From an uncultured Chloroflexia bacterium (GTDB lineage: Bacteria; Chloroflexota; Anaerolineae; CG2-30-64-16): a stretch of DNA of 64,000 nt. The position numbers were made by a program, and so were the translations under genes. Below the pieces are notes generated by a model. The model had not been told where the DNA came from. It made no database searches and saw nothing but the letters and a program-made list of their open reading frames with translations. The stretch spans positions 95,331-159,330 of the forward strand of contig CAWAOA010000005.1 in assembly GCA_963783655.1 (NCBI GenBank), read 5' to 3'. Shown here piece by piece: positions 4,160-63,831 of the stretch. Every line of letters begins with the position of its first letter. Position 1 is the first letter of the stretch.

Positions 4160-4317
4160 GCCAGACACGAGAGTCCGTTGTGTCGGGCCGTGAAGAGATC
4201 GTGGGACGGCCCATGCCGGTCCCTCCATTCCGGTTCAGCCAGTGAAGGCGTGTGCTGGTGTCCCCGTCCGGACTCGAATCCGGACCGCAACAGAATTTCG
4301 GTGGGTGCATCCGACGT

Positions 4318-4447
4318 TGGGGGCGATATGTAGGATAACATGCCGATGTTGTCCCGTGTGTGGGGTAGAGCGGGCTATTGTTGTCAACAAGCAGCATGCT
4401 CTACCCCATACCCGGGACAACATCGGCATGTTATCCTACAAATCGCC
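4318..4447. repeat. 125-bp near-perfect palindrome: about 50-bp arms (2-3 mismatches) around a palindromic core TTGTTGtCAACAA
   Basis: GGGGGCGATATGTAGGATAACATGCCGATGTTGTCCCG... mirrored by ...CGGGACAACATCGGCATGTTATCCTACAAATCGCCCCC. Intergenic between the EEP gene and the hydrolase gene. Confidence 0.7.
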
Positions 4448-4630
4448 CCCGACGTGCGGTGCGCCAACTTTCTGTCCCTGGCTTGACCCGCCAATACCCC
4501 GGCTGTATGCTAACGACTCGCAGGGGAGAGGGCGGTGGCGAGAGCATACGGCCCAGTATCTGCGCCTTGCGATCACCATCTGCGTCCCGGACCGGTGCAT
4601 TCAACCCTCGAACGCCGGAGGAGTTTACCC

Positions 4631-5532
4631 GTGTCGACTGCCAGCCTCAACGTATTCCGTACGGCACAGGGTGCAGAAGCCTATGGCGAGCTGTACCAAC
4701 GTTCGCTAGCATTATGGCGTCCTGCGGCAGAACCACTCACCGTCGAGACGGAATTCGGCGCGACGCGTGGGTTAACGCGGCGGGTTCGCCCGATTTGCCC
4801 CCGTTGGTGCTGATCCATGGCTTCGGCTTCTCTTCCGCACAATGGTATCCCAACGTACCGGCGCTTGCGCCACATTTCCGAATCTACGCCCCCGACGTCC
4901 CAGACCAGTTTGGGTTGAGCCGCCTCACAAAGCCGCTTCAGACACGGGAGAACTACGCGGCCTGGATTGCCGAGCTGCTCGATGGCCTCGGCATCGGCCG
5001 GGTTGCCCTCGTCGGGCACTCGTATGGCGGATGGTTGGCGACCAACTTTGCGATCGGCCGGCCGGACCGCGTCACCCGGCTGGCGCTGATCGCGCCGGCG
5101 GCCACCTTTGTCCCGCTCTCTCCCCAATTCTTCTTGCGAGGCATCGCCGGCGGAGCATTGGCGGGTATGCTGAACGTCGATTTCCCGGTCTATAGCATGG
5201 TGCGATGGATGACTACCGCCCGACCGGTGGAAGGACTGGAAATCATCGAGCAGTTCAAAATCGGAATGAAGAACCTGGCGCCCGTTCCATCAGGAATGCC
5301 GGGGGTCTTCAGTGCGGGCGAATTCGCGTGCCTGGATATGCCGGTCCTGCTGCTGATCGGGGAGCGCGAAGTCGTCTATCGAAAGCGCGCCGAGCAGGTG
5401 CTGGTCGAGGCGCGGAAAGCCATCCCGCAGCTGCAGACTGCGCTGATCCCCAACGGCGGTCACGCCGTAACTCTGGACCAGACAGAGGCGACCAACCGGG
5501 CACTGGCAGCGTTCCTTGGCTGCGCTCAATGA
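4631..5532 (+). CDS. alpha/beta-fold hydrolase; GTG start; one frameshift near 4770
   Basis: LVLIHGFGFSS...VGHSYGG (GXSXG nucleophile elbow)...NGGHAV. GGAGG lies 8 nt upstream of the GTG. Confidence 0.75.
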
Positions 5533-5631
5533 AGAGCCTGGTCACGACACCTGCGGGAGCAGCCAATGCACTGGACTGTACGTATGCTTGACGCCGAGTG
5601 TCGCTCACGCTCCGGTCACGCCAACCATCTA

Positions 5632-8797: not shown

Positions 8798-11505
8798 TTT
8801 GCGCCTCCTCGATGTCTGCCAGTGGGAGCGAAATTGTTATCACCGCGCCGCCTCCCGGGCCGTGCCGCCGCCCAGATCCGGCCCCGCTGCGCCTCGATCA
8901 GCCCCTTACTGATGGCCAGCCCCATGCCGGTACCGCCCACGCCGTCCGCCCTCTGGACCCGGTAGAACTTGTCGAAGACGCGTTCCTCGTCTTGCGTTGG
9001 GATGCCGACGCCGCGGTCAGCCACCGTAATTTCCACTGCCTCGTCTGCAGCCTGGGCCGCCACCTCAATGCCTGAGCCGGGGGGTGAATACTTGGCGGCG
9101 TTCTCGATCACGTTGACCAGCGCCTGCGCCGCCAGAGCCAAATCGGCAGATACCAACGGCAGGTCTGGTGCGGCGGTAACTGAGACTGTGCGGCCCTCCA
9201 GACGTTCCGCGAGCCTGGTCGAGCGCAGCCACGATCAACTCCTGCGCGTCACCGGCTCTTGCCTGGGACGGACTGCCCCGGCCTCGATCCGCGACATATC
9301 CAGCATGTTGCCTACGACCCGGTTGAGCCGTTCGGCCTGCTGGCGCGCGGTTGGAGGCCAGGCTGCGCCGGCTGGCGCCGTCGAGCCGGTCGCCGTCCTC
9401 CTCCAGGACGCCGAGCGTGCCGGTGATCGCCACCAACGGCGTGCGCAGTTCATGCGAGATTGAATTCAGCAGGGCGCCCTGCAAGCGTCTCCGTTGTCTC
9501 ACGCACCTCAAGCAAGCGGTTGTGCTCCGCCAACTGCGCTCGCTCGATAGCCAGCGCAGCCTGGCTGGCAAATGCCAGCATGAGCCGCCGCTGTTCAGGT
9601 GGAAGCACGACGTTTGGGTCTGGCGGCCATACACCCAGGACCCCCACGGTGCCGCGCGCCGTGGTAAGGGGCAGATACCTTCCCGACGCCGCCGCGAAAT
9701 GTGTCGGTGCCGCGTCCGGCCGGGCGGCCGCGCTCGGTAGACCCAATCAGCCACGGCGAGCTCGCTCTGGTCGAACTCATACCCAGGCGCTGCCGCTCGT
9801 ATCGTCTTCCCGTCATCGTCGGGAAGCAGAACCGCTGCGTGGCGCTCGAATACCTGCCGGACGTGGGTCAGCACCGCGTCCACAATCGTCGCCAGATCTT
9901 CGGCCGCCGCCAGATCGCGACTCAGCTCGTACTGCGCCAACGCCTGCATCTCTCGCTGCTGCGCAGCGTCGGCCTGCTCTCGCGCTCGAGCGGTCAGTGT
10001 GCTGATTACCAGCCCCACCGCCAGCAAACCGACAAAAGTCAACAGATACTGCGTGTCGGATACGGCAAAGCTCAGGTGCGGCGGCACGAAGAAGAAATCG
10101 AAACCCAGCACGCTCAACAGGGCGGCCAGCGCAGCCGGTCCTCTCCCCAGATACAGCGCGGCTACCACCACGCCCAGCAGGTAGAGCATCACCAGGTTTG
10201 GCGGCGCGACAAGATCGCGCAGTGGGATGCCCAGTGCAGTGATACCGGCGATGATCCCCAGGCTCAGCACATAACGATCCGCATGACTCGAAACGCCGGC
10301 CGGCACTGTCGAGGCGTGGCGCCGGCCGTTTCTCATCACCGGTTACCAGGTACACGTCAATGTTCCCGCTTTGTTTCGCGATCTGATCAACCAGCGAGCC
10401 TCGCAGCACCTCACGCCATCGTGGACGTTCCGGCCGGCCCGCGATGATCTTGGTGACATTATGCTTGCGCGCGTACTCTACGATGGTCTCGGCCACCGAC
10501 CGTCCCGGCAGGCTGACGGCCTTGCCGGACAGCTCTTCTGCAAGCTGCAGGGTGCGGGCAATCCTCTGCCGTTCGGCCTCAGAAAGGCGGGCATGGGCAG
10601 GCGTCGCCACGTAAACCGCCAGCCAGTCCGCGCCGATCTGATCGGCCAGCCGGCGCAGCGCTGTGTATCAGCCGCTCACCCAGTCGCCTGGACTTACGCA
10701 AACCAGCAGCCTTTCGCCTGCCGGCCACGGACCTGGTATGGCGCGTTCGGACATATAGTCGCGCATCTGAGTGTCGACACGTTCGGCGGTTCGGCGCAGC
10801 GCGAGCTCGCGCAAAGCGTTGAGATTCCCCCGACGGAAAAAACGCTGACCGCCCTGCGCCTCCTGCCGGGGACGTACACCTTGCCCTCATCCAGCCGCTG
10901 CCGCAGTTCGGCCGGCGGCAGGTCGATCAGCTCTATTTCGTCGGCGCCATCCAGCACGCCGTCCGGAATCCGCTCATCCACAACTACGCCCGTGATTTGC
11001 GCCACCACATCGTTCAGGCTCTCGATGTGCTGGACGTTGAGCGTCGTGTAGACGCTGATGCCGGCACCCAGGAGCTCCTCGACATCCATGTAGCGCCGGT
11101 TGTGACGCGAGCCCGGCGGGTTGGCATGTTCCAGTTCGTCGACCAGGGCGAGCTGAGGGCGGCGCAGCAGACAGCGCATCTGCGTCCAACTCCTCGCGGG
11201 CCTGCGATCCATTCCTCGATCGACCTCGGTGGAATCAGCTCCAGCCCCGCCAGCAGGGCGACAGTGTCGGGATGGCCGTGCGTCTCCACACAGCCGGCCA
11301 CCACGTCGATTCCTTCGGCCAGTCGTTGGTGAGCAGCCTCAAGCATCGCAAAGGTCTTCCCTACCCCGGGGGCGTATCCAAGAAACACCTTGAGCCGCCC
11401 ACGCGAGGGCTGCCCCGGACTGAGCTCAGTCCGGGGCAACGACTGGCCGGGCCCGGTGCGCAGGTTCTCGTCCATTTCCGCGTTCGTTGCTTGTCCTGGT
11501 GCCAT
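8790..11505 (-). CDS. kdpD: sensor histidine kinase KdpD (KdpD N-terminal domain, USP, 4 TM, GAF, HisKA, HATPase); several frameshifts; 4-nt ATGA-type overlap with kdpE
   Basis: N-terminus RGRLKVFLGYAPGVGKTFAML...; USP VAETIVEYARKHNVTKII; TM/GAF region; H-box LLNSISHELRTPL; C-terminus GTGMGLAISKGLIEAQRGRIWAAARPGGGAVITISLPLADIEEAQNG recovered by a frame switch. Confidence 0.85.
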
Positions 11506-14518: not shown

Positions 14519-15708
14519 TCAGGCGCACCCAAGAGCGAGGTGCGGGTCAAGGAAAACGCTGACGGGGGCGAGGATCATGATCCTCGCCCCCGTCAGCGTT
14601 GGCGCCATCGCATGCCGGCTCAGTGGTTTCCGGGCGGCGCGGAGCCTGGCACGGGGAACTCTTCCTCCCTCCATGCTGCTCCCTATGCGTACAACCAGCA
14701 CTCCACAACATGCCCCGGATCCCGCTCGATCGCCGGCGGCGCCTCGACGGAGCATTGCGGCATTGCGAACGGGCAGCGGGGGTGGAAGCGGCAGCCCGGA
14801 GGCACGTTCGCCGCGGAAGGCACCATGTCTCGGATCGGCACGGTGTTGCGCTTCACGTCGGGTCAGGCACGGGCACGGCTGCGACCAGCGCCTGGGTATA
14901 GGGGTGCAGCGGGTTGCTGATCGACCGCACTGGGTTGGCCCCGTCTCGACGACGCGGCCCAGGTACATGATCGCCGTCCGCTGGCACATGTACTGGATCA
15001 GCGACAGATCGTGTGAGATGTAGACCACAGCCAGGTTGAGCTGCGCCGAGAGCCGCTTCATGAGGTTGAGCACGCTGGCCCGCACCGACACGTCCAGCAT
15101 CGAGACCGGCTCGTCGGCCACCACGAAGGCCGGCTCCAGCACCAGGGCGCGCGCCAGTACCACACGCTGGAGCTGCCCGCCGCTCATCTGGTGCGGGTAC
15201 TTGTGCAGGAAGGTGCTCGGCGGGCTGCAGGTTCACCGCTTCCAGCGCCTGCGCCGACGCGCTGCCCGCCCTTCCGGATCGCCGTCAGCCCATGGATGAT
15301 CAGCGGTTCGAGGATGGCGCGCTCGATGGTGAAGCGCGGGTTGAGCGCCTCGTATGGGTTCTGGAACATGAGCTGCGCCTGCCGCCGGAACGCCTTCAGG
15401 GCTGTCGCCGTCCAGCTGCGCGACGATCCTGTGCCCTCGAACAGCACCTGGCCCCTCGTGGGTGCGCGTCAGCTGCAGGAGCAGCTTGCCGGTCGTCGTC
15501 TTGCCGCAGCCACTCTCGCCGGCCAGGCCCAGCGCCTCGCCGCGGTCGCAGGTGAAGCGAGACGCCGTCGACGGCGCGCACGCTGCCGCGTCGGCGCTGC
15601 CGCCCAGGGCGCCAGAACGCCCCGTGCGCAGCGGGTAGTGCTTCTACACGTCGCGCAGCTCGACGATCGGCGGGCGCGAGTGCCGCCTATACGCTCAGTT
15701 TCTGCCAT
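14519..15708 (-). CDS. oppF: peptide ABC transporter ATP-binding protein (OppF/DppF-like); frameshifts plus one in-frame TAG
   Basis: Walker [12 protein letters not shown] (frame-recovered), signature [15 protein letters not shown], Walker [12 protein letters not shown]. Confidence 0.75.
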
Positions 15709-16718
15709 GTTTCCGCATCCTGGGCCTGGGCCCTCAGCGCCTCCGCCTCGTGCATCCGGTGACAGGCGACGTAATGTGGCCGCTTTCGACATCGAGGTAG
15801 CGGCGGCTCCTCGGTGCGGCAGATCTCGATCGCAAAGGGGCAGCGCGGTGCGAAGCGGCAGCCTGTCGGTGGGTTGAGCAGGCTCGGGCAGGTGAGCCCT
15901 CGATCGACAATCAGCGCGTCGCGGCTCCAGAAGATTGGGGAAGGCGCTCTTCAGGCCCATCGTGTAGGGGTGGAGCGGGCTGGCTGGAAGATCGTGCTGC
16001 ACCGGGCCCGCTCTCGACCACCTGCCCGGCATACATCACCACCACGTCCTGGCACGTCTGCGGCCACCACCGACATGTCGTGCGTGATCATGATCACCGA
16101 GATGCCCAGGCGCTCCTGCAGGTCGCGCATCACCTCGAGCACCTGGTCCTGCACGATCACGTCGAGGGCCGTGACCGGCTCGTCGGCGATGACCAGCGAT
16201 GGGTGCAGCGCCAGCGCCATGGCGATCACGGCGCGCTGCTTCATGCCGCCGCTGAACTCGTGCGGATAGTTGCGCAGGCGCGCCGTCGTCCAGTCCGACC
16301 AGCTGCGAAGAGCTCGGCCTGCGCGCACTCGGGCTTCGGAATGATTCATCCCGCCGCGGTCGCTCAGCACTTCCAGGAACTGGCTCTCAAGCCGGTAGAC
16401 CGGATCGAGCGAGTCCATCGACGACTGGGGCACCATCGCGATCTCGCGCCAGCGCAAGTCGCGCATCTGGCGCTCTGGGAGAGCGACCAGATCTCGCCCC
16501 TTGAAGGCGATCTGCCCGCCGGTCGATGCGCATGTTGCGCGGCATCACGCGCATGATCGCCCGGCCGACGGTCGTCTTGCCGCAGCCGCTCTCGCCGATC
16601 AGCCCCAGGCTGCGCCCCTCTTGCACGGCGAAGCTGACCCCGTCCACGGCGACGCTGCGGGCCGTACGCTGTGCTGTAGGAGGCACGACAGGTCACGCAA
16701 TTCGAGTAGTGCGGCCAT
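15687..16718 (-). CDS. oppD: peptide ABC transporter ATP-binding protein (OppD/DppD-like); frameshifts
   Basis: [37 protein letters not shown], and C-terminal [12 protein letters not shown] plus a cysteine-rich tail. Confidence 0.75.
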
Positions 16719-20716: not shown

Positions 20717-22479
20717 TCATCGCAGCGATGCAGGTCGAACTGGCAAATCGACCTGTAAAGCGGCCCTCACTTCTCGACTGGCCTGCCGCACGGCATTGAC
20801 CACGCGGTTCTGGCCGCGGACCAACGACGCGACCGTGAAGTGGGCGATATCGGTTTCGGGTGACAGTCGACCCAGCCGCAGCGCCGGCGCCAGGTCGGGC
20901 AGCGGGCGGATCGGGGTGGCCGGATCGTGGCGGAACCGGCCGGTGCGCCCGTAGTTGATGGGCACCAGCACGCCGCGCCAGGCGCATGATGGCCTCGTTG
21001 ATGCGCGCACAGCCGGCCCGGTCTCCGTTTGCCCGGGCCGTTTCGGCGGCAGCGTAAAGCCCGACCAGATTCGGACCGCAGCGCCTCGACCGCGGCCCTG
21101 GCGGGACTGAGATCGAAGCGACCGGCTGCCGCCAGCGCATAGTCGTCGAGCACGCCGGCGAACTCGTCGGCCACTGCCAGGAAATCGAAGGGATAGATGT
21201 CGCTGTTGGCGACGCGGCTCAGCGCCGTGATGTAGACCTTGATATCGCGCAGCAGGTTGTCGCGGTCGGCCACCTGGATCCCGTCATCCTCGGTGTGCCA
21301 TTCGATGTTTCCGCCACAGCCCCCCACGTCGTACAACCCTTCGGCTTGAATCGCCGCCTGGGGCTTGCTCGAGAGCAGCATGAAGAATGAGCTGATACCG
21401 ATGTTGTTGAAGGAGTAATCGCCGGCGCGATGCGGGCGCTCGCCGTAAGCCGGCACGCCGGCAGCATCGTGGATCGCCTGCTTGCAGAAACGATCGGTCT
21501 CGGGCATCCACGAGATGCCGTAGTAGGCCGTTGCACCGCGACAGCCGGGCGAGTCGATGTTTACCTGCGCGATGCAGTTCTCGGCCAGGTCAAGCGCGAA
21601 TGTGTCGGCATACCAGGTCGAGCCGGCGTAGCGGCCCGTGGAGTGGCCCGGCCACCAGGCAAGGCGGATGCTGCGGCGCAGCTGCCCGCGGTTGTTCCAG
21701 AACACGCGCGCCAGCTCCAGGATCGCAGCGTTGCCCACCGCGTTGTCACCGCCGCCAACGCCCCAGGAGTCCAGGTGGCCGTGGGCCAGCACGAACTTCT
21801 CCGGTTCTTCCGTGCCGCGGATCTCGGCCACCAGCAGCGGAACCTGCTTCCAGCGCTGGTCGGAGAGCGAATGGATCGTCACCTCGCACCCGCGCTCCCC
21901 GGCACGCGCGGCGAGCGCCAGCCCGTCTGACCGGTTGACCGCCAGCACGGGGGTGTTGGGGATGCGATCCATCGAGTCAAGATCGGGCATGCCCCAGACG
22001 GTGGTCGCGATGCCCCAATGGCTGTTCTGGCCGGGGTTGATGTAGATCTGGCCGATCGCACCCCGCTGCTCGAAGTCGAGGCAGCACTCAGGGTTGGCGA
22101 GCCCTTCCGACAGCACGATCTTGCCGGCCACGTCGTAGCGACCCGGCCCATAGTCCAGGTCGACGTACGTCTGCACGTCGTCAGGCGAATCGGCGGGCAC
22201 GTAGACCAGCTCGCCCGTCAGCCCCTTCGGGGGCGTGTTGGCCGAGAACGCCTGCGCCTTGGCCGGCATGTAGCGGCCGTCGAGCTCCACATGCGCAGAG
22301 ATCGGCACCGACAGGTACAGCTCAGGTTCGTAATAGTTGTACGGCACGCCCAATGCGTCGAGCTGGCGGCGGATATAGTCGAACGCCAGGCGTTCCTCTG
22401 CGCTGCCCGACTCGCGAACGATGGTGGTGAAATACTCAACCAGCGGCCAGGCTACGTCCAGATTGGCCCCGGCGAGCAT
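20717..22479 (-). CDS. M28-family peptidase with a PA domain (aminopeptidase-like); frameshift near the C-terminus (about 21000)
   Basis: ...FVLAHGHLDSWGVGGGDNAVGNAAILELARVF...WWPGHSTGRYAGSTWY... (M28 zinc-binding motifs). Confidence 0.7.
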
Positions 22480-24995: not shown

Positions 24996-25316
24996 ATGGG
25001 CAACTACGTTCTTCTGTACATCGGTGGAAGCGAACCTCAGGGTCAAGAAGAAGCGGCAAGCGTGATGCAGGCGTGGACCAGCTGGTTCACGAATCTCGGA
25101 GACAAGGTCGTGGATCCCGGCAATCCGTTCTCTGCGCAGGTCAAAAGCGTAAGCGGCGACCGGCAGGTGTCCGACGGCCCGATTGGCGCCAGGGCCACGG
25201 GATACTCGATCGTCAAGGCGGATTCGCTGGATACCGCAACCGACATCGCCAAGAACTGCCCCCACCTCCAGGCGGGCGGCGAGATCACCGTGTACGAGGT
25301 ATACGCGATTTCGTAA
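24996..25316 (+). CDS. YciI-like (DGPF-domain) small protein
   Basis: MGNYVLLYIGG...WTSWFTNLGDKVVDPGNPF...; GGAGGG SD 7 nt upstream. Confidence 0.65.
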   Translation: MGNYVLLYIGGSEPQGQEEAASVMQAWTSWFTNLGDKVVDPGNPFSAQVKSVSGDRQVSDGPIGARATGYSIVKADSLDTATDIAKNCPHLQAGGEITVYEVYAIS

Positions 25317-25348
25317 GGCGGGTCCCGCGGGACAACAGTAAAGGCGTC

Positions 25349-25397
25349 CGAAACGGGCAGCCCCACCATCTGCAGGGCTGCCCGTTTACGCGGCGTA
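25349..25397 (+). terminator. hairpin AAACGGGCAGCCC-loop-GGGCTGCCCGTTT downstream of the YciI-like gene
   Basis: 13-bp perfect stem. No long T-run. Confidence 0.35.
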
Positions 25398-25426
25398 TGC
25401 AAACGCTCCTCCGGGGATGACTGTAG

Positions 25427-25443
25427 GGGGCGGGTGACCCGCC
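25427..25443. repeat. GGGCGGG-TGA-CCCGCCC hairpin repeat; further copies at 35578-35594, 35807-35823 and 37303-37319
   Basis: Identical 17-19-nt stem-loop seen four times, each adjacent to MITE-like repeats. Confidence 0.7.
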
Positions 25444-25545
25444 CCGGGGCTCGCAATGCGACAAAATCACCGGGGCGCGGCGCGTGCGGGGCGCTGACGC
25501 GGCGCTCGGCACGTACGCCTTCGATGCGAGTTGGATGGGGCACGG

Positions 25546-25717
25546 GGCGTACTTCGACAGGCTCAGTATGGAGTAGTCAGTTGTAGGCAACGATGCGAAT
25601 GGTTCCGTCCATGGGCAGCGATGGAGCTCGGCACCCAAGTGCGGGGTTCCTGAACAGAACCATCTGCATCGTCGGTAACCCCTAACGCCTCCATCCTGAG
25701 CCTGTCGAAGGACGCCC
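25546..25717. repeat. MITE-like palindromic element of about 175 bp (copy A): terminal inverted repeats GGCGT(A/C)CTTCGA...CTCAG(T/G)ATGG and CCATCCTGAG...TCGAAGGACGCC around a palindromic core
   Basis: Shares the core GATGCGAATGGTTC(C/T)GTCC...GGCACCCAAGTGCGGGGTTCC...ACAGAACCAT with copies B, E and F. No coding capacity. Confidence 0.75.
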
Positions 25718-25784
25718 GGTGCAGCGCGACTCACTTCACCGCTAACCCTTGACAGAACCTCTCGCATTGTCGCATACAATCAAC

Positions 25785-25828
25785 AACTCCATCCTGACGT
25801 GCCGCAGGCCGTGTCGAAGGACGCCCCG
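25785..25828. repeat. solo right-arm fragment of the MITE-like element (CTCCATCCTGA...GTGTCGAAGGACGCC)
   Basis: Matches the right terminal inverted repeat only. Confidence 0.55.
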
Positions 25829-25972
25829 TCCACCAACCGGCTCTCATGCCCCCTATCCTCAAGCTTTCTCAGCCGATTCTCAGCCCCTTCATAGGTCCTC
25901 TTCAGGCGGCCGCTGTAAGGTTTGCCTGTAGAATCAAGGTGGCCTCTGGCCACCAATCCTGTGGAGGGTATG

Positions 25973-26691
25973 CAATGAATTCCAATTATCAGCAGAGCTT
26001 AGCTCTGTCCAAGCAGCGGCTGAGGAGCCGCGTCGCCGCCGTCGCCGGCACGGTGTTGCTGGCGGCCGGCATCGCGGCCTGCGCCCCGAGCGCCGCCTCG
26101 GGTCCGATCGCTTCGGCGCCCACCGGCGCTCCGGTTGCGGCTACGGCGGCTGCCGTCCAACCCGCAACCGCTGTTCAGGCAGCCACAAGTGCGCCTACCG
26201 CACGCCCGGCGGCTGTCGCCACTGCAACGGGCGCCGGCGCGGCGAGCACCGCGGCAAGCAGCCCGGCTTCTACGGCAGCCGCACCCACCACGCCGGTAGC
26301 TGCAGCGCAAGCCTCGACGGTAACCAAGCTCAATCTCAACACCGCTACTGCGGCCGAGTTCCTCAAGGTACCGGGCGTGGGCAACCAGATGCTGCGCGAG
26401 TTCCAGGAGTACAAACCATACACCAGCATCCTGCAGTTCCGGCGGGAGATCGGCAAGTATGTCGACGCACAAACGGTGGCCGCTTACGAGCAGTACGTGT
26501 ACGTGCCTATCTCGGTGGCGTCCGCCGATGCCGCCACACTGCAGCAGATCCCGGGCCTCGACGCAACGGAAGCGGCAGCGCTGATCGCGGGGCGCCCGTA
26601 TGCTTCCGGTGAGGCTTTCCTGAGCAAGCTGGCCGGATACGTGTCGCCGGCCGAGCTGGCCGCAGCCCGGTCGTACCTGGGCACCCCATGA
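25973..26691 (+). CDS. lipoprotein with an Ala/Thr-rich linker and tandem helix-hairpin-helix (ComEA-like) motifs
   Basis: Lipobox LLAAGIAAC; two copies of the LN.ATAAE(F)L..(I/V)PG(V/L) motif. Confidence 0.55.
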
Positions 26692-27179
26692 ACGCCGATC
26701 TGATTCTGGCGCGGCTGCGACGCTTCCTGCTGGGGCTGTCGGGTTTCCTGTTACTCGGGACGCTCGGCGAGCTGATCGCCATCCAGCACACCCAGGAGCC
26801 ACTGCAGCTCGTGCCCTTCGTGCTGTGCGGGCTGGGACTCGTGGCTGTGGCCGCAGCTCTCGCCCGCCCAGGGCGGCAGACGCTGATGGCGCTGCGTCTT
26901 CTGATGATCCCGCTGGCGCTGGGAAGCCTGCTGGGGGTCTGGGAGCACGTGCAGAGCAATATTGCCTTCTACCAGGAGGTACACGCAAGCGCCACGACGG
27001 CGCAGCTCATCGGGGCGGCGGTGGGTGGGCGAAACCCGCTTCTGGCGCCGGGCATGCTGGCACTGGCGGCGGCGCTGGCTGCAGCGGCAACCTACTACCA
27101 TCCGGTCCTGAGCCGCCAGACGGCTGCAGCCTATGAGAAGACAGGCAGTGTGCCTGTCAGGACCGGCCGGCGATCGTGA
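26688..27179 (+). CDS. hypothetical integral membrane protein (4 TM)
   Basis: Hydrophobic segments. ATGA overlap with the upstream gene. Confidence 0.4.
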   Translation: MNADLILARLRRFLLGLSGFLLLGTLGELIAIQHTQEPLQLVPFVLCGLGLVAVAAALARPGRQTLMALRLLMIPLALGSLLGVWEHVQSNIAFYQEVHASATTAQLIGAAVGGRNPLLAPGMLALAAALAAAATYYHPVLSRQTAAAYEKTGSVPVRTGRRS

Positions 27180-27445
27180 GTGATCCAACCGCGAGAGCGG
27201 GGCATGGCGGCAATGCCGCGGCCCATACCCTGTTCTCCCGTAGGATGCGGCCTCAGCCAACATCGAAGCATCCCGGAAGTCCGGCGCTTGCCGCTTCGGA
27301 AATGTAGGTCTCGTCGCCGTGCCGGCATGAGAGCCGTTGGAGACGGGGCGTTTGCGATTGAGGGGCACGGGCCGCAGTCCGGCCGGCAGGCCATCGAGGC
27401 ATGGGCATGGCAAGCTAACTGCATTGAAGGCTGCCGCACTGCCAC

Positions 27446-27626
27446 GGGCGTCCTTCGAGAACCTCAGGATGGATGCGCTAGTTATCAGCATCGATGCGAA
27501 TGGTTCCGTCCAGGGGTATCGGCAGAATGTGGCACACGAGCGCGGAGTCCCTCTGCATCACCACTCGCATCCTCGCAGACCACAAACTACTCCATCCTGA
27601 CTGGCCGCAGGCCGTGTCGAAGTACG
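27446..27626. repeat. MITE-like palindromic element, copy B
   Basis: GGGCGTCCTTCGAGAACCTCAGGATGG...CCATCCTGACTGGCCGCAGGCCGTGTCGAAGTACG. Confidence 0.7.
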
Positions 27627-27919
27627 AGCGTTACCCACTCGCGTGGCTGCTGCTGATCCCGCTCGCCGGTATCCCGCTGCTGTTGCGCCGCTCGCGGCCG
27701 GCGCGCCCGGTTTCCGCTCCTCAGGTGCACCGGCGGCCAGCCCAACCGGTCGCGCCCGATCGCCCCACGCGGCCGCCGCCACCAAGCGGCGCTGACGTGA
27801 CCCACGGAAGGGGCAAGTCGGGCAGGCCGAAGGCCGGGTGAAGTGTGGGCCGCGCAGGCAACGGGCACACAGCACCCGCCACCTGCCCACCCGCCGCGCC
27901 AGAGCGCCCCCGGCTGCGA

Positions 27920-35431: not shown

Positions 35432-35690
35432 GGGGCGGTCTGAGGGCCGCCTGATCGCCGTCTGAGCCGGGCTTGCCGCCGGCTGAAACGGGGCCACGAA
35501 CACCGGCTGAGCGATGCCGTGAACGCCAGCGCGGGTTGTGCTTTTGGCAGCGCACCCCGCGCTGGCGTTCCGATCGTAGGGGGCGGGTGACCCGCCCCGT
35601 GCCCCAATGCCACGCGATTTTCGGTGGGCGGCACGGGCGCGGCGGCCGGGATGCGGCGCCCCCGGCTTCGATGGGGGTTGCGAGGTCGAT

Positions 35691-35790
35691 GGGCGTCCTT
35701 CGTCAGGCTCAGGATGGAGTTGTTAGGGGTTACCATCGATGTGGGTGGTTCTGTTCAGGGACCCCGCGAGCATCAGGTCAGAGAGTTAGT
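35691..35790. repeat. degenerate/partial MITE-like element (left arm GGGCGTCCTTCGTCAGGCTCAGGATGGAG...)
   Basis: Left terminal inverted repeat and part of the core are present. The right arm is degenerate. Confidence 0.5.
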
Positions 35791-35823
35791 GGTGTTGTAT
35801 TGCAGGCACGGGGCGGGTGACCC

Positions 35824-37302
35824 ATACCTCATAGGTTAACGGGAATCAGGGTTTGTCAAGCATCGGATTTGCCCCCCTCTTCGTCCAGGGCCAGGCTCAC
35901 CTGCGTCAGCAGCGAGGGGCGGTCAGGGGCGCGGGCACGTTTGACGATGCCCAACAGCTTAGCCTCCTCGGCGAGAAACTGGGCGGCCGGGCCCTGAAAG
36001 GTGCCGGCCTGGGTGCGCACGGCGTAGTAATACAACATGCGGGACACCATCTCCAGCGAGATGCGCTCGAGCGGCAGCCCCAATTCCTCGGCCACCTCAT
36101 CGCCCAGATCGACCAAGACGGCGTAGTAGACCCAGGTGGCCCACACCTGCAGCTGCACGCCGTTGTTACTCCCCACCCACAGATATGACAGATCCAGCAG
36201 CCGCTTGACCAGCGCAAAGGCGCTCTCGATCTGCCAGCGCCTCTGGGAGACGGCCACCACTTCCAGCACCGAGAGCTGCTGCGGGTCGAGCACGTTGGTC
36301 AGGTAGCGGCGCCAGGCGCCGTCCACGTACACCTCGACCAGCCGCAGCGGGTGCTGCGAGCGGTGGGAGCGGTACCGGCCAAGCTGGACGATCTGATCGC
36401 GCACCTGCGGCTGCTGCCTCAGGCTCTGCCGCACAGTATAGCTGGTCTGCTCCCGCAGGCGGGTGACAAACCAGCTGCCCCTCTCCGTCAGGGCATCAAA
36501 GAAGCCAAAGGAGAAGTAGCCCAGATCGAAGACCAGCAGGCTGTTAGCGGGCAGCCAGGCCAGGAGCTGGGGCTGGAAGGCCTTGTCGTTGGTGGCCGGG
36601 TCCTCGCCAAACCAGATCTGGGCCGGCAGGTGGCTGAGCACATCCACCACCACCGCCAGGTGCCCACCCAAGGGCGCTTCCGGCACCTCGCGCAGCGCCT
36701 GCAGCTTGCGGAATAAGGCTTCCAGCGTGGTGCCATCCAAGGCGTAGCAGGCGGCGAAGCGCTGCGCCAGGCCGGCCAGCCGCGGCGGCAGCGGCCGCTG
36801 GCGGGCGGCGGCGCGGGCGGGCAGGGCGGCCAGCACCGTTTCCAGCACGCCCTGGAAGAGCTGGGCAGGGAAGGTGAGAAAGCGCTCGCTCAAAGCCGGT
36901 TGGCTGACCCGGAACGGTTGCGTCCACCCCACCCGTTCCTGCGCCAGCAAGCGCTGCAACTCACACACGCCCGCCAGATGCCGCCACAGCATGGCCAGCA
37001 CCACCGAGACCATCACCGGCAGGGTGAGCAGGCGGTTGCGCAGTCCCAACTGCCGGTAGTGCGCCATTTCGCTGTAGACGGCCGGTGCCACCAAATCTTG
37101 CAGCCGTTGTTCGATGGCAGCATCGCTGGGTGCCGGGGGGTGAACGCCGCCGGGCGTGATCTGGATCTCCCGCTGCTGCCGCGAACCGGCCGCTCCGTAG
37201 CCGCGGTTTGGCCCCGATTCGCATGTCCCTATCCTACGCCCCCACCGCCGGCGCCGCAAGCCCCCCCTTGACTCCCCCCTCTGTGCTTAACCTATGAGGT
37301 AT
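35824..37302 (-). mobile_element. IS4-family insertion sequence, 1479 bp, with 16-bp terminal inverted repeats ATACCTCATAGGTTAA / TTAACCTATGAGGTAT and an 11-bp target-site duplication GCGGGTGACCC
   Basis: Exact inverted ends at 35824-35839 and 37287-37302. The flanking 11-mers at 35813-35823 and 37303-37313 are identical. It contains one intact DDE transposase ORF. Confidence 0.8.
35856..37259 (-). CDS. IS4-family DDE transposase (467 aa, apparently intact)
   Basis: DDE_Tnp_1-like regions: ...LLVFDLGYFSFGFF...YRSHRSQHPLRLVEV...RWQIESAFALVKR... Confidence 0.85.
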   Translation of the reverse strand: MRRRRWGRRIGTCESGPNRGYGAAGSRQQREIQITPGGVHPPAPSDAAIEQRLQDLVAPAVYSEMAHYRQLGLRNRLLTLPVMVSVVLAMLWRHLAGVCELQRLLAQERVGWTQPFRVSQPALSERFLTFPAQLFQGVLETVLAALPARAAARQRPLPPRLAGLAQRFAACYALDGTTLEALFRKLQALREVPEAPLGGHLAVVVDVLSHLPAQIWFGEDPATNDKAFQPQLLAWLPANSLLVFDLGYFSFGFFDALTERGSWFVTRLREQTSYTVRQSLRQQPQVRDQIVQLGRYRSHRSQHPLRLVEVYVDGAWRRYLTNVLDPQQLSVLEVVAVSQRRWQIESAFALVKRLLDLSYLWVGSNNGVQLQVWATWVYYAVLVDLGDEVAEELGLPLERISLEMVSRMLYYYAVRTQAGTFQGPAAQFLAEEAKLLGIVKRARAPDRPSLLTQVSLALDEEGGKSDA

Positions 37303-37520
37303 GCGGGTGACCCGCCCCCTACGTCCGGAGCGGTGTACGCCCCTTAAGGCGTGATCTGGGAATCTACCAGACGACCCGCCCCATACGACAAGCGAAGTCT
37401 CGCCGTCCACAACACACCCGCCCCCTGCGTCCGGAGCGGTGTATGTCCCTTTGAGCGCAGCCTTCCCGTCTACCCGATGACCCGCTCCCTACGACAGCCC
37501 GAAGACGCGCCCCCCGTTCA
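37303..37520. repeat. about 3.5 degenerate tandem copies of a roughly 55-60-bp unit (GACCCGCCCCCTACGTCCGGAGCGGTGTACG...)
   Basis: Direct repeats visible at 37306, 37372, 37417 and 37478. Confidence 0.5.
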
Positions 37521-37641: not shown

Positions 37642-38076
37642 ATGTTGGCACCCACGGAGAAATTGATGCCGGACGTCACCGAATTCCTGTCTGATGTCGT
37701 CGCGTGGGCGCGGGATAGCGACGACGTCCTGGCCGTCGCGTTGGTGGGTTCGCAGGCTCGGGGCGCTGCGCGGGCGGATTCGGATGTGGATCTGGTGATC
37801 TTGCTGGGCGACCGGCAGCGCTATCTTGAGGATGCGGGCTGGACCGGGCAGTTCGGCACGGCGCTGAGCCTGGCACGCGAAGACTCGGGCGCGGTGCAAT
37901 CGCTGCGGGTGCGGTATGCGGACGGGCTCGAGGTGGAATTCGGGTTGGCGTCCGGCGAATGGGCCGCTACGGAACCTGTGGACGAAGGGACCCGGCGGGT
38001 CGCGGCGGACGGGCTGCGCATCCTTTTCGACCCCCACGGAAGGCTCGCACGGCTGATGGCCGCGATCGCGCGGTAA
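37642..38076 (+). CDS. nucleotidyltransferase-domain protein (Pol-beta-like NTase)
   Basis: ...LAVALVGSQARGAARADSDVDLVILL... (GS...D.D NTase motif). Confidence 0.55.
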   Translation: MLAPTEKLMPDVTEFLSDVVAWARDSDDVLAVALVGSQARGAARADSDVDLVILLGDRQRYLEDAGWTGQFGTALSLAREDSGAVQSLRVRYADGLEVEFGLASGEWAATEPVDEGTRRVAADGLRILFDPHGRLARLMAAIAR

Positions 38077-38130
38077 CGAGGAGCTACGATGAGCAAGGCG
38101 CGATCGCGCGGTAACGAGGAGCTACGATGA
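38057..38130. repeat. perfect tandem duplication of about 43 bp (GCGCGATCGCGCGGTAACGAGGAGCTACGATGAGCAAG x2) spanning the NTase stop and the RBS/start of the M24 peptidase gene
   Basis: Two identical copies back to back. The duplicated segment contains GAGGAG plus ATGAGCAAG. Confidence 0.7.
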
Positions 38131-39263
38131 GCAAGATAGGTATCGGCGCCGAGGAATACCGGGCGCGCATGGCTGCGCTCCAGGCGAGCCTGGCTGAGGA
38201 GGATCTGGACCTCTTCGTCGTGTCAGCCGAGGAATCGATCCAGTATCTGATCGGCGTCTCGTACCGGCCGCTGGAACGCCCTTTCTTTATCCTGGTCCGT
38301 CCTGCCGGTGACCCCGAGCTGCTGGTGCCCATGCTCGAGCGCGATCACCTCGCGCACGCCGCGTCGGTGGCCCGCGTGCACACCTATTGGGATTACCCCT
38401 CGCCGGCGGGGCAGGGTTGGGCTGAGCGGCTGTGCGAGCTGGCGGGCAACGCCGGCAACGCCGGCAGCGTGGGCATCGAGCCGAGCCTGCCGCAGGAGAT
38501 CGCCGGTGCGCTCGCAGAGTCGCGTCCACGGGCGGTCCCGCTGGTGGAGAGGCTGCGGCTGGTCAAGTCGCCGGCGGAGATCGCGATGCTGCGGCACGCG
38601 GCGCGCTATGCCGACATGGGGGTGGCGAAGGCGATCAAGGCGGCGTATTACGGCTGTTCCCTGCTCGAGCTCTTCAGCCAGGGCCGGTCCGTCCAGACGC
38701 AGATGATCAAGGAAGTGGGCTACGACGCGCTGCTGTCGAGCGTGCTGGCCGGAGCCTGGCCCGCGCCCGGGAGCGCGATGCCGCACGGCGTGCCGTCGGT
38801 CGGCACCCGGCTGAAGGATGGCCCGCACATTGCCCTGAGCCTGATGCGAGCGCTGGGTTACTGCGCCGAATGCGAGCGGACCTTCTTCCTCGCGCCGCCG
38901 ACGCCCGAGGTGCGGCGGGCGTTCGCAGCGATGACCGAAGCGCGCCGGCGGGCGTTTGCCGTGGTCCGGCCGGGCGCCACCTGCGAGGAAATTGACGTCG
39001 CGGCCAACGGCTTCCTGAAGTCGGAGGGCTACGGGCCCAACCTGCTCCATCGCACCGGTCACGGCTTTGGGCTGAGCACGCACGAAGGGCCGTGGGTAGC
39101 AGAGGGGTCAGACCAGGTGCTCGCGCCGGGGATGCTGATCAGCATCGAGCCGGGCATCTACATGCCGGGGACCGGCGGCGTGCGGCACTCCGATACCGTC
39201 CTTGTGACCGGGAGCGGCTACGATACCCTCACGCGTTACCCGACCGGCATCTCGAGAGCCTGA
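38127..39263 (+). CDS. M24-family metallopeptidase (Xaa-Pro aminopeptidase/creatinase-like), intact
   Basis: ...HRTGHGFGLSTHEGP...ISIEPGIY.... Intact 378-aa ORF. Confidence 0.8.
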   Translation: MSKIGIGAEEYRARMAALQASLAEEDLDLFVVSAEESIQYLIGVSYRPLERPFFILVRPAGDPELLVPMLERDHLAHAASVARVHTYWDYPSPAGQGWAERLCELAGNAGNAGSVGIEPSLPQEIAGALAESRPRAVPLVERLRLVKSPAEIAMLRHAARYADMGVAKAIKAAYYGCSLLELFSQGRSVQTQMIKEVGYDALLSSVLAGAWPAPGSAMPHGVPSVGTRLKDGPHIALSLMRALGYCAECERTFFLAPPTPEVRRAFAAMTEARRRAFAVVRPGATCEEIDVAANGFLKSEGYGPNLLHRTGHGFGLSTHEGPWVAEGSDQVLAPGMLISIEPGIYMPGTGGVRHSDTVLVTGSGYDTLTRYPTGISRA

Positions 39264-48349: not shown

Positions 48350-49040
48350 TTGCGGCTCCGCACTGACGGCGATCTGCGCTTGCCTTCCCCTTTACTACCG
48401 TAGCTGCAAAGCAGCCGGCGTTAACCCCAAACAGGATGCGGCAGGCTCTGCTTCCGGCAGCTTTGCTGTCGCTTGACCGGCAGCGCTGCGGGAAGCAGCG
48501 CGATCGCGGTGCCCGGGGCGCGGCGCGGGCGCGTGGCCAAAGGGCAGCGGCGCGGGTGCGCACCGGATGCTCCGCCGCCGGCTTCGACGCGAAGCAGGTG
48601 CGCGACGGGGCGTCCTTCGAGACCCTCAGGATGGCTGTGCTAATTGTTGCCACCAATGCAAATGCTGCGCTCCAGGAACCCCGCACTTGGGTGCCACAGA
48701 ATGTCGATGCCCCTTGACCCGAGCATCGGCTTCGGCGCCAACAATTAGCACAACCATCCTGAGGGTCTCGAAGGACGCCCCGTCGTACGGCCATCTCGCG
48801 TCGACGGCTGGGCAGTGCAAGAATCCCGTTAGCCTGTGAGGTCTGTGTCGCCGCGCCGCGGCCATCGCAATCGCGCTGCTTCCCGGCGCGTTGCCGGGTA
48901 CCGATGGCACGGTAACACGCGCCTCGCGGACTCCCGCGCAGGTTTGTGCAATGCGACAGCAAAGCTGCCGGAAGCAGACCTCGCCGCGTCCCGTTCGGGG
49001 TTAACGCCGGCTGCTTTGCAGCTACGGTATCAAGGGGGAA
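48350..49040. repeat. about 690-bp long inverted repeat (arms of about 160-240 bp) with MITE-like copy D (48607-48784) at its centre
   Basis: The left arm 48370-48530 is the reverse complement of 48840-49030 with few mismatches. Centre GGGGCGTCCTTCGAGACCCTCAGGATGG...CCATCCTGAGGGTCTCGAAGGACGCCCC. Confidence 0.75.
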
Positions 49041-49086
49041 GGCAATTCCGGCCAACGGAGCGGAGCGCGCCGCCACGCGGGGCGGG

Positions 49087-60589: not shown

Positions 60590-62946
60590 CGAACCGGCGA
60601 ACAGATCCGGGCGCCCGAGCTCGAGCCGGGAGCGCCGGCCAACCTGCGCATCGTCGGTCACGTGGTCGCCCGGCCGGACGCCTTCCTCAAGGTGACCGGC
60701 GCCGCGAAGTTCACCGACGACTACACCTTCCCGGAGATGCTCCACGCCCGCGCGCTGCGGGCCATGGTCCCACACGCCATCGTGACCCGCCTGGACGTGA
60801 CCCGCGCCCAACGCCTGCCGGGCGTCCACGCCGTCCTGACCGCGGCGGACGTGCCGGGACGGAAGAACCACGGCCTGGTGACCTTCGATTGGCCGGTGCT
60901 CGTGGGCGTGGGCGAGAAGGTCCGCACGGTGGGCGATGCGGTGGCGATCGTCGCGGCCGACACCCGCGAGATCGCGACGGAAGCGCTCGCCCTGATCGAA
61001 GTGGCGTACGAGCAGCTACCGGTTGTGAGCGATCCCCGCGCCGGCGCTGGAGCCCGACGCGCTCAAGATTCACGAGTCGGGCAATCTGCTCAAGCACATC
61101 TACCTGAGCAAGGGGGACATCGGCGAGGGGTTTGCGCAGGCGGACACCATCTTTGAGGAGACGTACTTCACGCCGGCCCACGATCACGTCTTCATGGAGC
61201 CCGAATGCTCGATCGCCCGGCCGGTCGAAGACGGCAGGCTGGAGATCTACGTCGGCTCGCAGATCGCCTACTCCGACAGGAGCCAGGTGGCGGCGTCGCT
61301 GGACATGCCCCAGGCGGACGTGCGCATCGTCGGGACGCTGGTGGGCGGCGGCTTCGGGGGCAAGGAGGACATCGCCGGGCAGATCCATGCAGCCATGCTG
61401 GCGCGCGCCACCGGGCGGCCGGTCAAGCTGCTGTTCGATCGCCAGGAGAGCCTGATCGTCCACCCGAAGCGGCACGCCACCGAGATCCGCGTGCGGCTGG
61501 GGTGCAAGCAGGACGGCACGCTCGTGGCCGCGCAGACCGAGCTGATCGGCGACACCGGCGCCTACGCCTCGCTGGGCGAGAAGGTGATGACGCGCGCCAC
61601 CACGCACTCCACCGGCCCCTACGTCATCCCGAACGTCAAGTCCGACTGCTTCGCCACCTACACCAACAACCCGCCCGCCGGCGCCTTCCGCGGGTTTGGC
61701 GTGCTCCAGTCCGCCTTCGCCATCGAGTCGGCGATGGACGAGCTGGCCGAGCAGCTGGGCATGGACCCGATCGAGATCCGCCGGCTCAACGCCCTGCGCA
61801 CCGGCACAAAGACGAATACCGGCCAGCTTCTGACGGAGAGCGTGGGGCTGCCCGAGTGTATCGAGAGGATGGAAGCGGAGCTGCGCCGCGTATGCCCCGG
61901 CGACCCGTTCGCTCCCAGCCCGGTCGAAGGCTACCCGAACCGCCGCCGGGCCTGGGGCGTGGCGCTGGGCTACAAGAACACCGGGACTGGGCGGGGGCGC
62001 TCCCGACAAGGCCGCAGCCGAGATCGAGCTGTATCCGGACGGCGCCGTCGAGGTGCGCACGTCGTCGGCCGAGATCGGCCAGGGGCTGGTCACGGTGCTG
62101 CAGATGGTCGCCGCCGAGGAGCTGGGCCTGCCGCAGCACCGGGTACGCGTCCTGCTCTCCGACACCGACCGCACGCCCGACGGCGGCCCGACCACGGCGT
62201 CGCGCCAGACCTACGTGTCGGGCAACGCCGTGCGCAAGGTCGCCCAGTTGCTGCGTGCGTCGATCAACTCCACCCTCGCCGAGGCGTTCGACTGCCCGCC
62301 CGACGAGATCGAGTACATCGAGGGGCTGGCGCAGGTACGCGAGCGCAAGGTGTCGCTGGGAGAGGTGGTCCCGCTGATGCTGGCGGAAGGGCGCAGCCCG
62401 GTGGTGGGGTACGAGTACTGGGCGCCGGCCACGCAGCCGATCGTCGGCGGAACCGACATCCATTTCGCCTTCTCCTTTGCGGCGCAGGCCGCCGAGGTCG
62501 AGGTGGATACCGACACCGGAGAGGTGCGCGTGCTGCGCATGATCGTGGCCGACGACGTGGGCAAGGCGATCAACCCGCTGGGGCTGCGCGGCCAGATCGA
62601 GGGCGGCGTGATCATGGGGGTCGGCCAGGCGCTGACGGAAGAGTTCATCGTGAAGGACGGGGTGGTCGTCACCGACCGGCTCGGCCGCTACCGGATGCCG
62701 GGCATCACCCATACGCCCGAGATCATCCCGATCGTCGTGGAGCACCCGACCGCCGAGGGGCCGTACGGCGCCAAGGGGGTGGGCGAGATCAGCATCATCC
62801 CGACGCCGGTGTCGATCACGAACGCCGTCTACAACGCCTGCGGCGTCCGCATCCGGCGGCTGCCGATCGACCAGGATTGGCTGGCGCTGGAGCTGCGCCG
62901 GCGCAGGACCGGGGATCCAGGCGATGGCCGGCATGGGATCGGGTGA
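60590..62946 (+). CDS. coxL: molybdopterin-binding large subunit of a xanthine dehydrogenase/aldehyde oxidoreductase family enzyme; at least 3 frameshifts
   Basis: ...LKVTGAAKFTDDYTFPEMLHARALRAMVPHA..., ...GGGFGGKED..., ...RTPDGGPTTASRQTY..., ...GPYGAKGVGEI.... Confidence 0.8.
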
Positions 62947-63014
62947 TGATGAGAGTTGAGATCTGGTCGGATATCGTGTGCCCCTGGTGTTACATCGGCC
63001 GGGATCGGGGCTGA
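62946..63014 (+). pseudogene. 22-codon remnant of a DsbA/FrnE-like thioredoxin-fold gene (MMRVEIWSDIVCPWCYIGRDRG*)
   Basis: Contains the N-terminal CPWCY(I)G active-site motif of DsbA-family proteins and stops after 22 aa. Confidence 0.4.
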
Positions 63015-63463: not shown

Positions 63464-63550
63464 GGGTGAGAGAGGGGAGCGGGCGGCCGTCAACGAATTG
63501 CGGGAACGAAGGGGGGGGGTAAACGAATGGCGGCCGGAGCGGCGCGCGCC

Positions 63551-63772: not shown

Positions 63773-63831
63773 TCAGTCGCGCCGCTCACAACGGCTCGGC
63801 TACCATTGATGCGAGTCGGCTAGCCAGACGA

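Follow-up and report, generated by a model that had tools for sequence, protein, structure and literature searches.

Intergenic hairpin repeats are hot spots of recombination and insertion, alter the fate of mRNAs and can account for several per cent of the DNA, and mechanistic knowledge of them comes almost entirely from Proteobacteria. Here we ask what kind of element is the palindromic repeat that recurs between the genes of a 64,000-nucleotide stretch of DNA from an uncultured Chloroflexia bacterium (contig CAWAOA010000005.1 of assembly GCA_963783655.1, positions 95,331 to 159,330 of the forward strand; hereafter the window). A first-pass annotation had likened this repeat to miniature inverted-repeat transposable elements (MITEs) and had suggested either a recently active non-autonomous transposon or a structured RNA family. 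The explanation that we favor, and to which we give about an even chance of being right, is that the family is a non-autonomous, DNA-level intergenic element that is moved in trans: a doublet of modules resembling repetitive extragenic palindromic (REP) sequences, comparable to REP doublets forming hairpins (REPINs), with a long structured spacer.

Seven copies of a nested palindrome

A profile of four full copies, searched against the window with nhmmer and no filters, returned exactly seven loci (c1–c7, Table 1), with nothing further above noise. Five are full-length, c7 being clipped by the window end, and two (c2 and c4) are half copies. They are spread over five intergenic regions in both orientations, include the tandem pairs c1–c2 and c6–c7, and make up ~2.1% of the window. 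The arm pattern GCGTMCTTCG-N5-6-CTCAGKATGG has nine matches in the window compared to none in 100 shuffles and is present on both strands of every full copy. The core GGCACCCAAGTGCGGGGTTCC has three exact matches where none are expected and has diverged in c3 and c7. By these measures every locus listed in the first-pass annotation is real, but the loci number seven instead of at least eight, and the unit measures ~230 nt instead of ~180 bp, since the similarity between copies runs ~25–30 nt past the listed arms on each side.

All copies are intergenic and non-coding, ORFs through them have no support, and the family is not part of a larger coding repeat. The pseudo-peptide ILR(V/F)SKDA, noticed earlier in translations through the elements, was found in c3, c5 and c6, with ILSLSKDA in c1. 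No Pfam family matches these read-through peptides, whose sole homolog is an open reading frame (ORF) called in the source metagenome-assembled genome (MAG) itself. The c6 peptide retrieved nothing from an index of 5.8 billion proteins, and an exhaustive phmmer search of 1.84 billion representatives with the c5 peptide retrieved, apart from that ORF of the source MAG, just two repeat proteins that are unrelated.

Since many genes of the window are split or frameshifted, as would follow from assembly errors or pseudogenes, we considered whether the copies are themselves artefacts of assembly or sequencing, such as collapsed repeats or fold-back chimeras. However, the copies differ by 23–33%, the two arms within a copy are imperfect (71–90% complementary), the copies lie within the contig between intact genes, and the arm module was found independently in isolate genomes. 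An artefact is scarcely credible on these grounds.

The ~230-nt unit is a nested imperfect palindrome. From outside to inside it consists of an outer flank (TTCGATGCGAGTTGG...), an arm module with the form (G)GGGCGTCC-TTCG-N5-CTCA-GGATGG in the window copies, an inner arm (...CGATGCGAATGGTTCYGTCC...) and a core of ~35 nt that contains GGCACCCAAGTGCGGGGTTCC, after which the parts follow as reverse complements. The core had been described as palindromic; it is asymmetric and holds only a small GCAC-CCAA-GTGC hairpin. It does occur in either orientation, as had been noted, but this means that the whole element is inverted in c5 and c4, with the core-adjacent sequence following the core. Similarly, the inverted ends are real, being found on both strands of the full copies, but they are not terminal: the conserved module is subterminal, and similarity extends ~25 nt further out. 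In c1, c5 and c6 the inverted (head-to-head) arm modules are always separated by exactly 121 nt, despite a sequence difference of 23–31%.

As the first-pass annotation had anticipated, the elements are predicted to form long hairpins: relative to shuffled sequence, c6 reaches a folding z-score of −12.1 when modeled as single-stranded DNA, and c1 one of −5.85 when modeled as RNA. In these models, the whole strand can snap back into a stem of ~100 bp. RNAalifold applied to four copies gave 74 pairs, 10 of them with compensatory changes in the long stem. In addition, the five variable bases of the module are the same in both arms of a copy and differ among copies (ACAGG in c1, AGACC in c5, AGAAC in c6).

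Table 1. Positions in the window of the repeat copies, their modules and other features.
Feature	Position	Strand	Evidence or content
c1, full length	25517-25744	+	nhmmer E = 7.8e-67
c1 arm modules	25544-25573 (+), 25689-25718 (-)		core GGCACCCAAGTGCGGGGTTCC at 25630-25650
c2, half copy	25733-25848	+	nhmmer; right half only (inner arm, arm module, outer flank)
c3, full length	27419-27644	+	nhmmer E = 6.1e-60; left arm module 27445-27474
c4, half copy	35665-35767	-	nhmmer E = 3.1e-18; arm module 35691-35719
c5, full length, entire element reversed	48578-48808	-	nhmmer E = 1.3e-65
c5 arm modules	48607-48636 (+), 48753-48781 (-)		core 48675-48695 on - strand
c6, full length	63547-63775	+	nhmmer E = 2.1e-65; core 63656-63676
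c6 arm modules	63572-63600 (+), 63717-63747 (-)		6-nt loop in the - strand module
c7, clipped by window end	63804-64000	+	nhmmer E = 3e-34; tandem, 28 nt after c6; left arm module 63830-63858
666-bp imperfect palindrome	48380-49045		c5 at exact center
IS4-like insertion sequence	~35813-37305	-	467-aa DDE_Tnp_1 gene 35856-37259; ends ATACCTCATAGGTTAA / TTAACCTATGAGGTAT
GTAG-type repeat, single copies	25423-25445, 35576-35598	+
GTAG-type repeat, tandem copies	37310-37322, 37374-37386, 37416-37428, 37480-37492	-	tandem spans 37303-37495
Run of ~10-11 G	63511-63521		directly upstream of c6
168-nt hairpin	4301-4468		76-nt arms, 16-nt loop
Apparent 3' half of a tRNA	4250-4290	-	T-arm, acceptor stem, CCA
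37-nt repeat, two copies	38061-38135		CGCGATCGCGCGGTAACGAGGAGCTACGATGAGCAAG, one base apart

Individual copies differ in completeness and in the state of their modules. The left arm of c1 carries a double change (GCGTAC...CAGTATGG) that recurs in the left arm module of c7. The half copy c2 is joined to the end of c1 and pairs with its left half (blastn, 25734-25847 vs 25626-25524, 69%); its arm loop is enlarged by a GGCC-GCA-GGCC mini-hairpin, like that of c3, with whose right arm it shares 79–84% identity. The loop of the right arm module of c3 is broken by an insertion of ~13 nt (CTGGCCGCAGGCC), and the diverged c3 core reads GGCACACGAGCGCGGAGTCCC. The reversed half copy c4 comprises the outer flank, the arm module, the inner arm and the beginning of the core, and its complementarity to the c1 right arm is 88%. 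The run of G residues directly upstream of c6 is possibly a slippage-prone tract or a homopolymer sequencing error.

Copy c5, whose stem is the best paired in the family, lies at the exact center of an imperfect palindrome of 666 bp. The outer arms of this palindrome are 90% complementary over one segment (48380-48472/48953-49045) and 86% over another (48477-48525/48849-48897), and neither arm (93 nt and 49 nt) has a second copy in the window, the palindrome itself giving a self-inverted blastn match of 711 columns. It lies downstream of a large gene of the tetratricopeptide repeat (TPR)/cyclase type, and a 358-aa ORF of the source annotation (P0121) runs through it. Outside the unit, the flanks of c6 are also inverted repeats (GAGCGGCGCG).

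Flanks of this kind raise the possibility that the family arose through palindrome biology and not through an enzyme dedicated to the element. Either a hairpin-seeking sequence would have inserted at hairpin tips (Russian-doll nesting), or snap-back and template-switch errors of replication would have lengthened palindromes stepwise into the 230-nt unit and its inverted flanks. The nested modules of the unit, the central position of c5 between unique outer arms, the inverted flanks of c6 and, in other genomes, the repeated occupation of one fixed arm site by an IS5-family insertion sequence (IS) and its MITE would all suit such a history. It leaves unexplained, however, why one and the same 230-nt unit, with an unchanged 121-nt spacing, recurs at seven loci and why the arm module is far better conserved than the rest, and inverted flanks are found in only two of the four complete copies (c5 and c6). 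We consider this origin quite improbable.

Pairwise identity among the copies is 67–77% (blastn), and that of their spacers 65–77%. Nearly all invariant columns fall within the two arm modules and a portion of the core, with the inner arms drifting. Because the copies are only 67–77% identical, sequence comparison indicates an old family with no recent burst, contrary to the earlier suggestion of recent activity.

A short arm module found in many phyla

The arm module is itself a short imperfect palindrome, in which CGTCCT and AGGATG surround TC-G-N5-C-TC. It has a 6-bp stem, a TC/TC internal loop and a single G-C pair, and its variable 5-nt tip can accommodate a sixth base (c6) or a mini-hairpin of 16 nt (c2 and c3). 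Pairing of CGUCCU with AGGAUG was assessed in two sets of sequences. Among 25 hand-picked module sequences, 88.8% of the cells pair and 13 cells show double changes, compared to 3.6 in shuffles (none of 500 shuffles reached this number). Among 110 module instances, gathered with a sequence-only model that adds no structural bias, 98.3% of the cells pair and 14 cells show double changes, compared to 1.2 ± 1.0 in shuffles (again none of 500), while slid controls gave at most 4. Most of the instances are invariant because the loci were picked with a fixed pattern. A G·U wobble in the module is retained in 82 of 92 instances.

The double change that c1 and c7 share in their left arms (C-G to A-T) keeps the module's own pairing and creates two mismatches with the partner arm, and the same change (GCGTAC...CAGTATGG) also occurs in two unrelated MAGs. 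A search with a pattern restricted to the loop returned the variant stems CGTGC/GCATG, CGGCC/GGCTG, TGCCC/GGGCG and CACCC/GGGTG. Such covariation would equally be expected from a symmetric binding site in double-stranded DNA.

Scanning one genome per species with the arm pattern yielded at least 64 loci, where we estimate ~9 chance matches under equal base frequencies. A handful of the matches listed look like chance and lie inside genes. In about two-thirds of them, the five unspecified bases are ACAAG or ACAGG, which is not attainable by chance. Among the matches listed, the module occurs in Alpha- and Gammaproteobacteria, Chloroflexota (Dehalococcoidia), Acidobacteriota, Patescibacteria, Bacteroidota, Armatimonadota and Vulcanimicrobiota; overall it was recorded in at least eight phyla, both in solo copies and in short hairpins. 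The matches include isolates of Altererythrobacter, Novosphingobium, Mesorhizobium and Luteimonas and span loci of 34–72% GC. Literature searches with the arm 13-mers and pseudo-peptides returned only unrelated primers and peptides, and no description of the module turned up.

The arrangement of the module varies in other genomes, where 66 solo, 20 head-to-head and 4 tail-to-tail arrangements were counted. Sphingomonads carry tail-to-tail pairs together with solo copies, and low-GC loci of the Patescibacteria type have overlapping 13-6-13 arrangements. The Chitinophagaceae locus L018 and the low-GC loci L022, L026, L028, L038, L043 and L053 also share further short hairpin modules, and their intergenic regions look like a mosaic of these. 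Rhodospirillales-type MAGs contain short head-to-head hairpins of ~85 nt. These hairpins, found in Dongiaceae, Stellaceae and Azospirillaceae MAGs and on a Novosphingobium plasmid, resemble the window element in having the same module (GCGTCCTTCGACARGCTCAGGATG) head-to-head in intergenic DNA. They differ from it in that the spacer is 33–58 nt long, unrelated in sequence, and without the 120-nt inner part. The plasmid copy, which lies between parA and parB in one operon, is the single match on plasmids, from which the module is nearly absent. The window element itself has no plasmid match, and the module has none among the 2.9 million viral contigs of IMG/VR.

The inner 120 nt behave differently from the arm module. 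Neither they nor the core matched any of the at least 64 arm-bearing genome loci, and the exact core was absent from JGI metagenomes. A combined inner-arm and arm pattern gave 43 loci in JGI metagenomes, all of them chance matches without the element. Furthermore, 33 kb from the nearest retrievable relatives, in which the protein of a neighboring gene is 72–73% identical, contain neither element nor arm. Judged by one protein, the nearest named relatives of the source, a MAG contig of 164 kb, belong to Anaerolineae/Chloroflexi. By these comparisons the inner 120 nt are lineage-specific, unlike the arm module.

How the family may have spread

In the mechanism that we propose, the unit consists of two inverted, REP-like imperfect palindromes (CGTCCT-TC-G-N5-C-TC-AGGATG) around a 121-nt spacer that would itself fold into a hairpin from two inner arms flanking the small asymmetric core. 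A trans-acting, structure-specific enzyme, by analogy a transposase of the HUH or RAYT (REP-associated tyrosine transposase) type encoded once elsewhere in the genome, would recognize the arm module, and the family would have grown within this lineage as the folded single strand was copied out or copied in. Long persistence would have followed, with the modules held by enzyme recognition and the spacer held only for its hairpin. Consistent with this proposal, the modules are far more conserved than the spacer and the hairpin is kept at 23–33% divergence. Single copies may secondarily affect neighboring mRNAs, which would not be the cause of the family. Mobility itself is inferred here.

This organization is close to that of REPINs, which are known from Pseudomonas fluorescens and other Proteobacteria, are mobilized by RAYTs, and comprise a pair of inverted REPs whose spacer differs from copy to copy but invariably forms a hairpin (PMC3337134). 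They fall into discrete spacing classes, occur as singlets and clusters beside doublets, and are extragenic and long-lived (PMC3337134; PMC3116915). The family studied here likewise combines two inverted short palindromes with a copy-specific folding spacer and a discrete spacing, is extragenic, and comprises singlets, doublets and clusters of diverged, long-lived copies that by extrapolation would number hundreds per genome. REPs of Escherichia coli and the bacterial interspersed mosaic elements (BIMEs) that they compose are similar: their palindromic units, alternating in orientation, are clustered into mosaics at the 3' ends of genes, are targets of ISs, and can be co-opted for mRNA stability or transcription attenuation. 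They differ in their unrelated sequence and in their 35–40-nt units with short linkers, as opposed to the ~100-bp stem and conserved core found here.

Several observations weigh against a REPIN-like origin. No RAYT or HUH gene was found in the 64-kb window or in 111 other loci, although this is a weak negative, as the profile was enterobacterial only and the window covers 64 kb of the genome: neither a hidden Markov model of 115 enterobacterial RayT proteins nor tblastn gave a match in the six-frame translations of window and loci, and sensitivity for distant RAYTs is low. Pfam scans of the window ORFs revealed no Y1_Tnp domain. The GTAG-type 5' signature of REPs is absent, the module being preceded by GGG(G) or GTG, and its conserved center measures 11–13 nt. 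With a 121-nt spacer and a 230-nt unit, the element is about twice as long as described REPINs (~90–110 nt). The module stem is thermodynamically marginal (−5.5 kcal/mol as RNA, z ~0) and is not the minimum-energy fold with DNA parameters. Finally, the module is common to many phyla, whereas REPIN-RAYT systems are described as lineage-specific and vertically inherited (10.1101/2022.05.22.493013). The family thus works like a REPIN, but we do not file it as a member of that class. It is new in sequence and ordinary in kind.

The wide distribution of the module also invites a bolder proposal, which we hold to be doubtful. The 25–30-nt module (CGUCCU-UC-G-N5-C-UC-AGGAUG), with its conserved G·U wobble, might be a recognition hairpin conserved in sequence from Patescibacteria to Proteobacteria, a kind of universal REP, for a widespread enzyme that acts on single-stranded DNA or RNA, is not among the known RAYTs, and either moves between phyla or is ancient. 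The 230-nt Chloroflexota elements would then be its most elaborate derivative, a composite whose 121-nt spacer and conserved asymmetric core would go with a second, lineage-specific function.

We also considered a classical MITE, that is, a deletion derivative of an IS with a DDE transposase, mobilized by cut-and-paste through terminal inverted repeats (here GGGGCGTCCTTCGA...). The family is small and non-coding, has several copies and conserved inverted ends, and true MITEs are known in this sequence neighborhood, such as a 100-nt IS5-derived MITE with a 5-bp duplication in a Dongiaceae MAG. However, target-site analysis, which the first-pass annotation had recommended, revealed no direct repeats where homology ends in c1, c3, c5 and c6, boundaries whose fuzziness leaves room for a duplication of 2–3 bp; where the flanks are repeats, they tend to be inverted ones, as in c5 and c6. 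Conservation is centered on a subterminal part, with similarity and palindromy continuing outside it, and copies that are 67–77% identical do not suggest a recent burst. The search for an autonomous partner with matching ends, proposed at the same time, found none in the window, of which ~55 ORFs were scanned against Pfam. The sole transposase of the window belongs to an IS4-like element with a DDE gene, has unrelated ends (ATACCTCATAGGTTAA), and sits in another repeat. A MITE origin is therefore improbable. Neisseria Correia elements and the enterobacterial repetitive intergenic consensus (ERIC) or intergenic repeat unit (IRU) sequences offer a related comparison: they too are non-coding elements of 100–250 nt with inverted ends, abundant, and often co-transcribed as hairpins, and Correia elements occupy ~2% of the genome, akin to the 2.1% of the window. 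Correia elements differ in their TA target duplication and near-identical copies; here there is no such duplication, the copies have diverged, and palindromy runs through the whole element.

Among the at least 64 foreign loci listed, the only transposase adjacent to an arm is an insertion into the arm and no partner. In Dongiaceae and Kiloniellaceae, the combination of arm, AGACCTTTGCACGG and transposase resembles a long terminal repeat, but it is due to an IS of the IS5 family that has 20-nt ends of its own and a 5-bp duplication (AGGAT). In locus L057 this IS (4409-5569, DUF772 and DDE_Tnp_1, 326-aa transposase, ends GGAGACCTTTGCACGGGAGG) lies inside the arm of a short hairpin, and the 100-nt IS5-derived MITE occupies the same arm site in four other hairpins. 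IS5-type insertions at the same module position were seen at L007, L019, L024 and L049 (Dongiaceae MAG JBFXDS01) and at L005, L016 and L059 (Kiloniellaceae MAG). Their occurrence in two alphaproteobacterial families points to sequence- or structure-specific targeting of the module, which is a preferred target of another element and not that element's end. Some ISs similarly target the REPs of E. coli.

Could the family instead operate as RNA, as an mRNA 3'-end stabilizer, an RNase III substrate, a terminator without a U-tract or a small structured RNA, and have been amplified or retained for that role? Each of the five intergenic regions with copies includes one or more gene 3' ends, and the G·U wobble kept in most module instances is possible on one strand only. 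In a Chitinophagaceae MAG (L018, 7630-7680) and in low-GC loci of the Patescibacteria type, the module lies inside a longer GC-rich hairpin with a T-run on the opposite strand, resembling a terminator, and the copy on the Novosphingobium plasmid is situated within a single operon. However, finding a 3' end in every one of the five regions has a probability of ~0.24 by chance and so lacks significance, and the window copies stand in either orientation relative to their neighboring genes. Rfam 15 gave no match at the gathering score across the whole window and only noise at E ≤ 10 over 25400-25900, and its matches in 18 arm-bearing loci were tRNAs only. Over 25300-27800 and 63300-64000, none of the elements overlaps a sigma-70-type promoter or an intrinsic terminator, nor was a promoter or terminator consensus seen in or beside the window copies.

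The mismatches between arms bear on the same question. When each left arm was aligned to the reverse complement of its right arm, 62 transversions and 46 transitions were counted. G·T-compatible mismatches number 33 on the - strand and 13 on the + strand, and c5 shows this bias too, though inverted; sorted by the orientation of the element, the numbers become 21 and 25. This pattern looks like a genome-strand mutation bias and not like selection on a transcribed strand. The lack of an Rfam match and of promoters or terminators, together with a predominance of transversions and with wobble unbiased by orientation, argues against the structured RNA family suggested in the first-pass annotation, and we judge an RNA-level explanation unlikely. 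Individual copies may nevertheless have a secondary role in transcripts.

A number of known motifs were compared with the module by eye and rejected. The 38-bp ends of the Tn3 family have GGGG...GCTCAG in common with it, but offset by 7 nt and without TAAG. CUGAGC is not the CUGANGA of a hammerhead core, and a tRNA T-arm fails in the commonest (ACAAG) variant. A CsrA site, with CAGGAUG common to both, was dropped; to our knowledge, CsrA is absent from most Alphaproteobacteria. Copy c2 contains a sigma-70-like TTGACA...TACAAT upstream of the following gene, but its spacer measures 20 nt and the promoter scan rejects it.

Other features of the window and implications

A second, unrelated repeat consists of GTAG followed by a GC-rich palindrome (GTAGGGGGCGGGTGACCCGCCCC), the classical REP signature; its 13-mer has seven matches, compared to 0.4 expected. 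Four copies stand in tandem, ~42–64 nt apart. One copy lies ~70 nt upstream of each of c1 and c4, with homologous intervening sequence (25423-25614 vs 35576-35760, 71%). The IS4-like IS is inserted into a copy of this repeat with an apparent ~11-bp duplication (GCGGGTGACCC).

The window also contains an unrelated hairpin of 168 nt with arms that are 86% complementary. It is preceded by an apparent 3' half of a tRNA, possibly a remnant of an attachment site; ARAGORN found no complete tRNA gene in the window. An exact 37-nt repeat duplicates the ribosome-binding site and start codon of an M24 peptidase gene (start at 38127). A large number of genes are split or pass from good protein sequence into Arg/Gly/Pro-rich nonsense (for example 20767-22479, 61194-63014, 9065-11212 and 14519-16466), among them fragments of a peptidase, a xanthine-dehydrogenase-type subunit, KdpD and an ABC ATPase. 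The window therefore holds either many assembly indel errors or many pseudogenes.

Overall, the window provides a well-defined hairpin family, amounting to ~2% of the sequence, from an uncultivated Chloroflexota-like lineage. Its elements yield spurious ORFs, such as the 358-aa "protein" through c5 in the source MAG, and should be masked in annotation. The arm module is not lineage-specific, contrary to the current view that REPs and REPINs are species-specific and inherited vertically. If a single partner enzyme accounts for the module in all these phyla, then phylogenetic profiling, in which the presence of the module is compared with gene content, should identify that enzyme.

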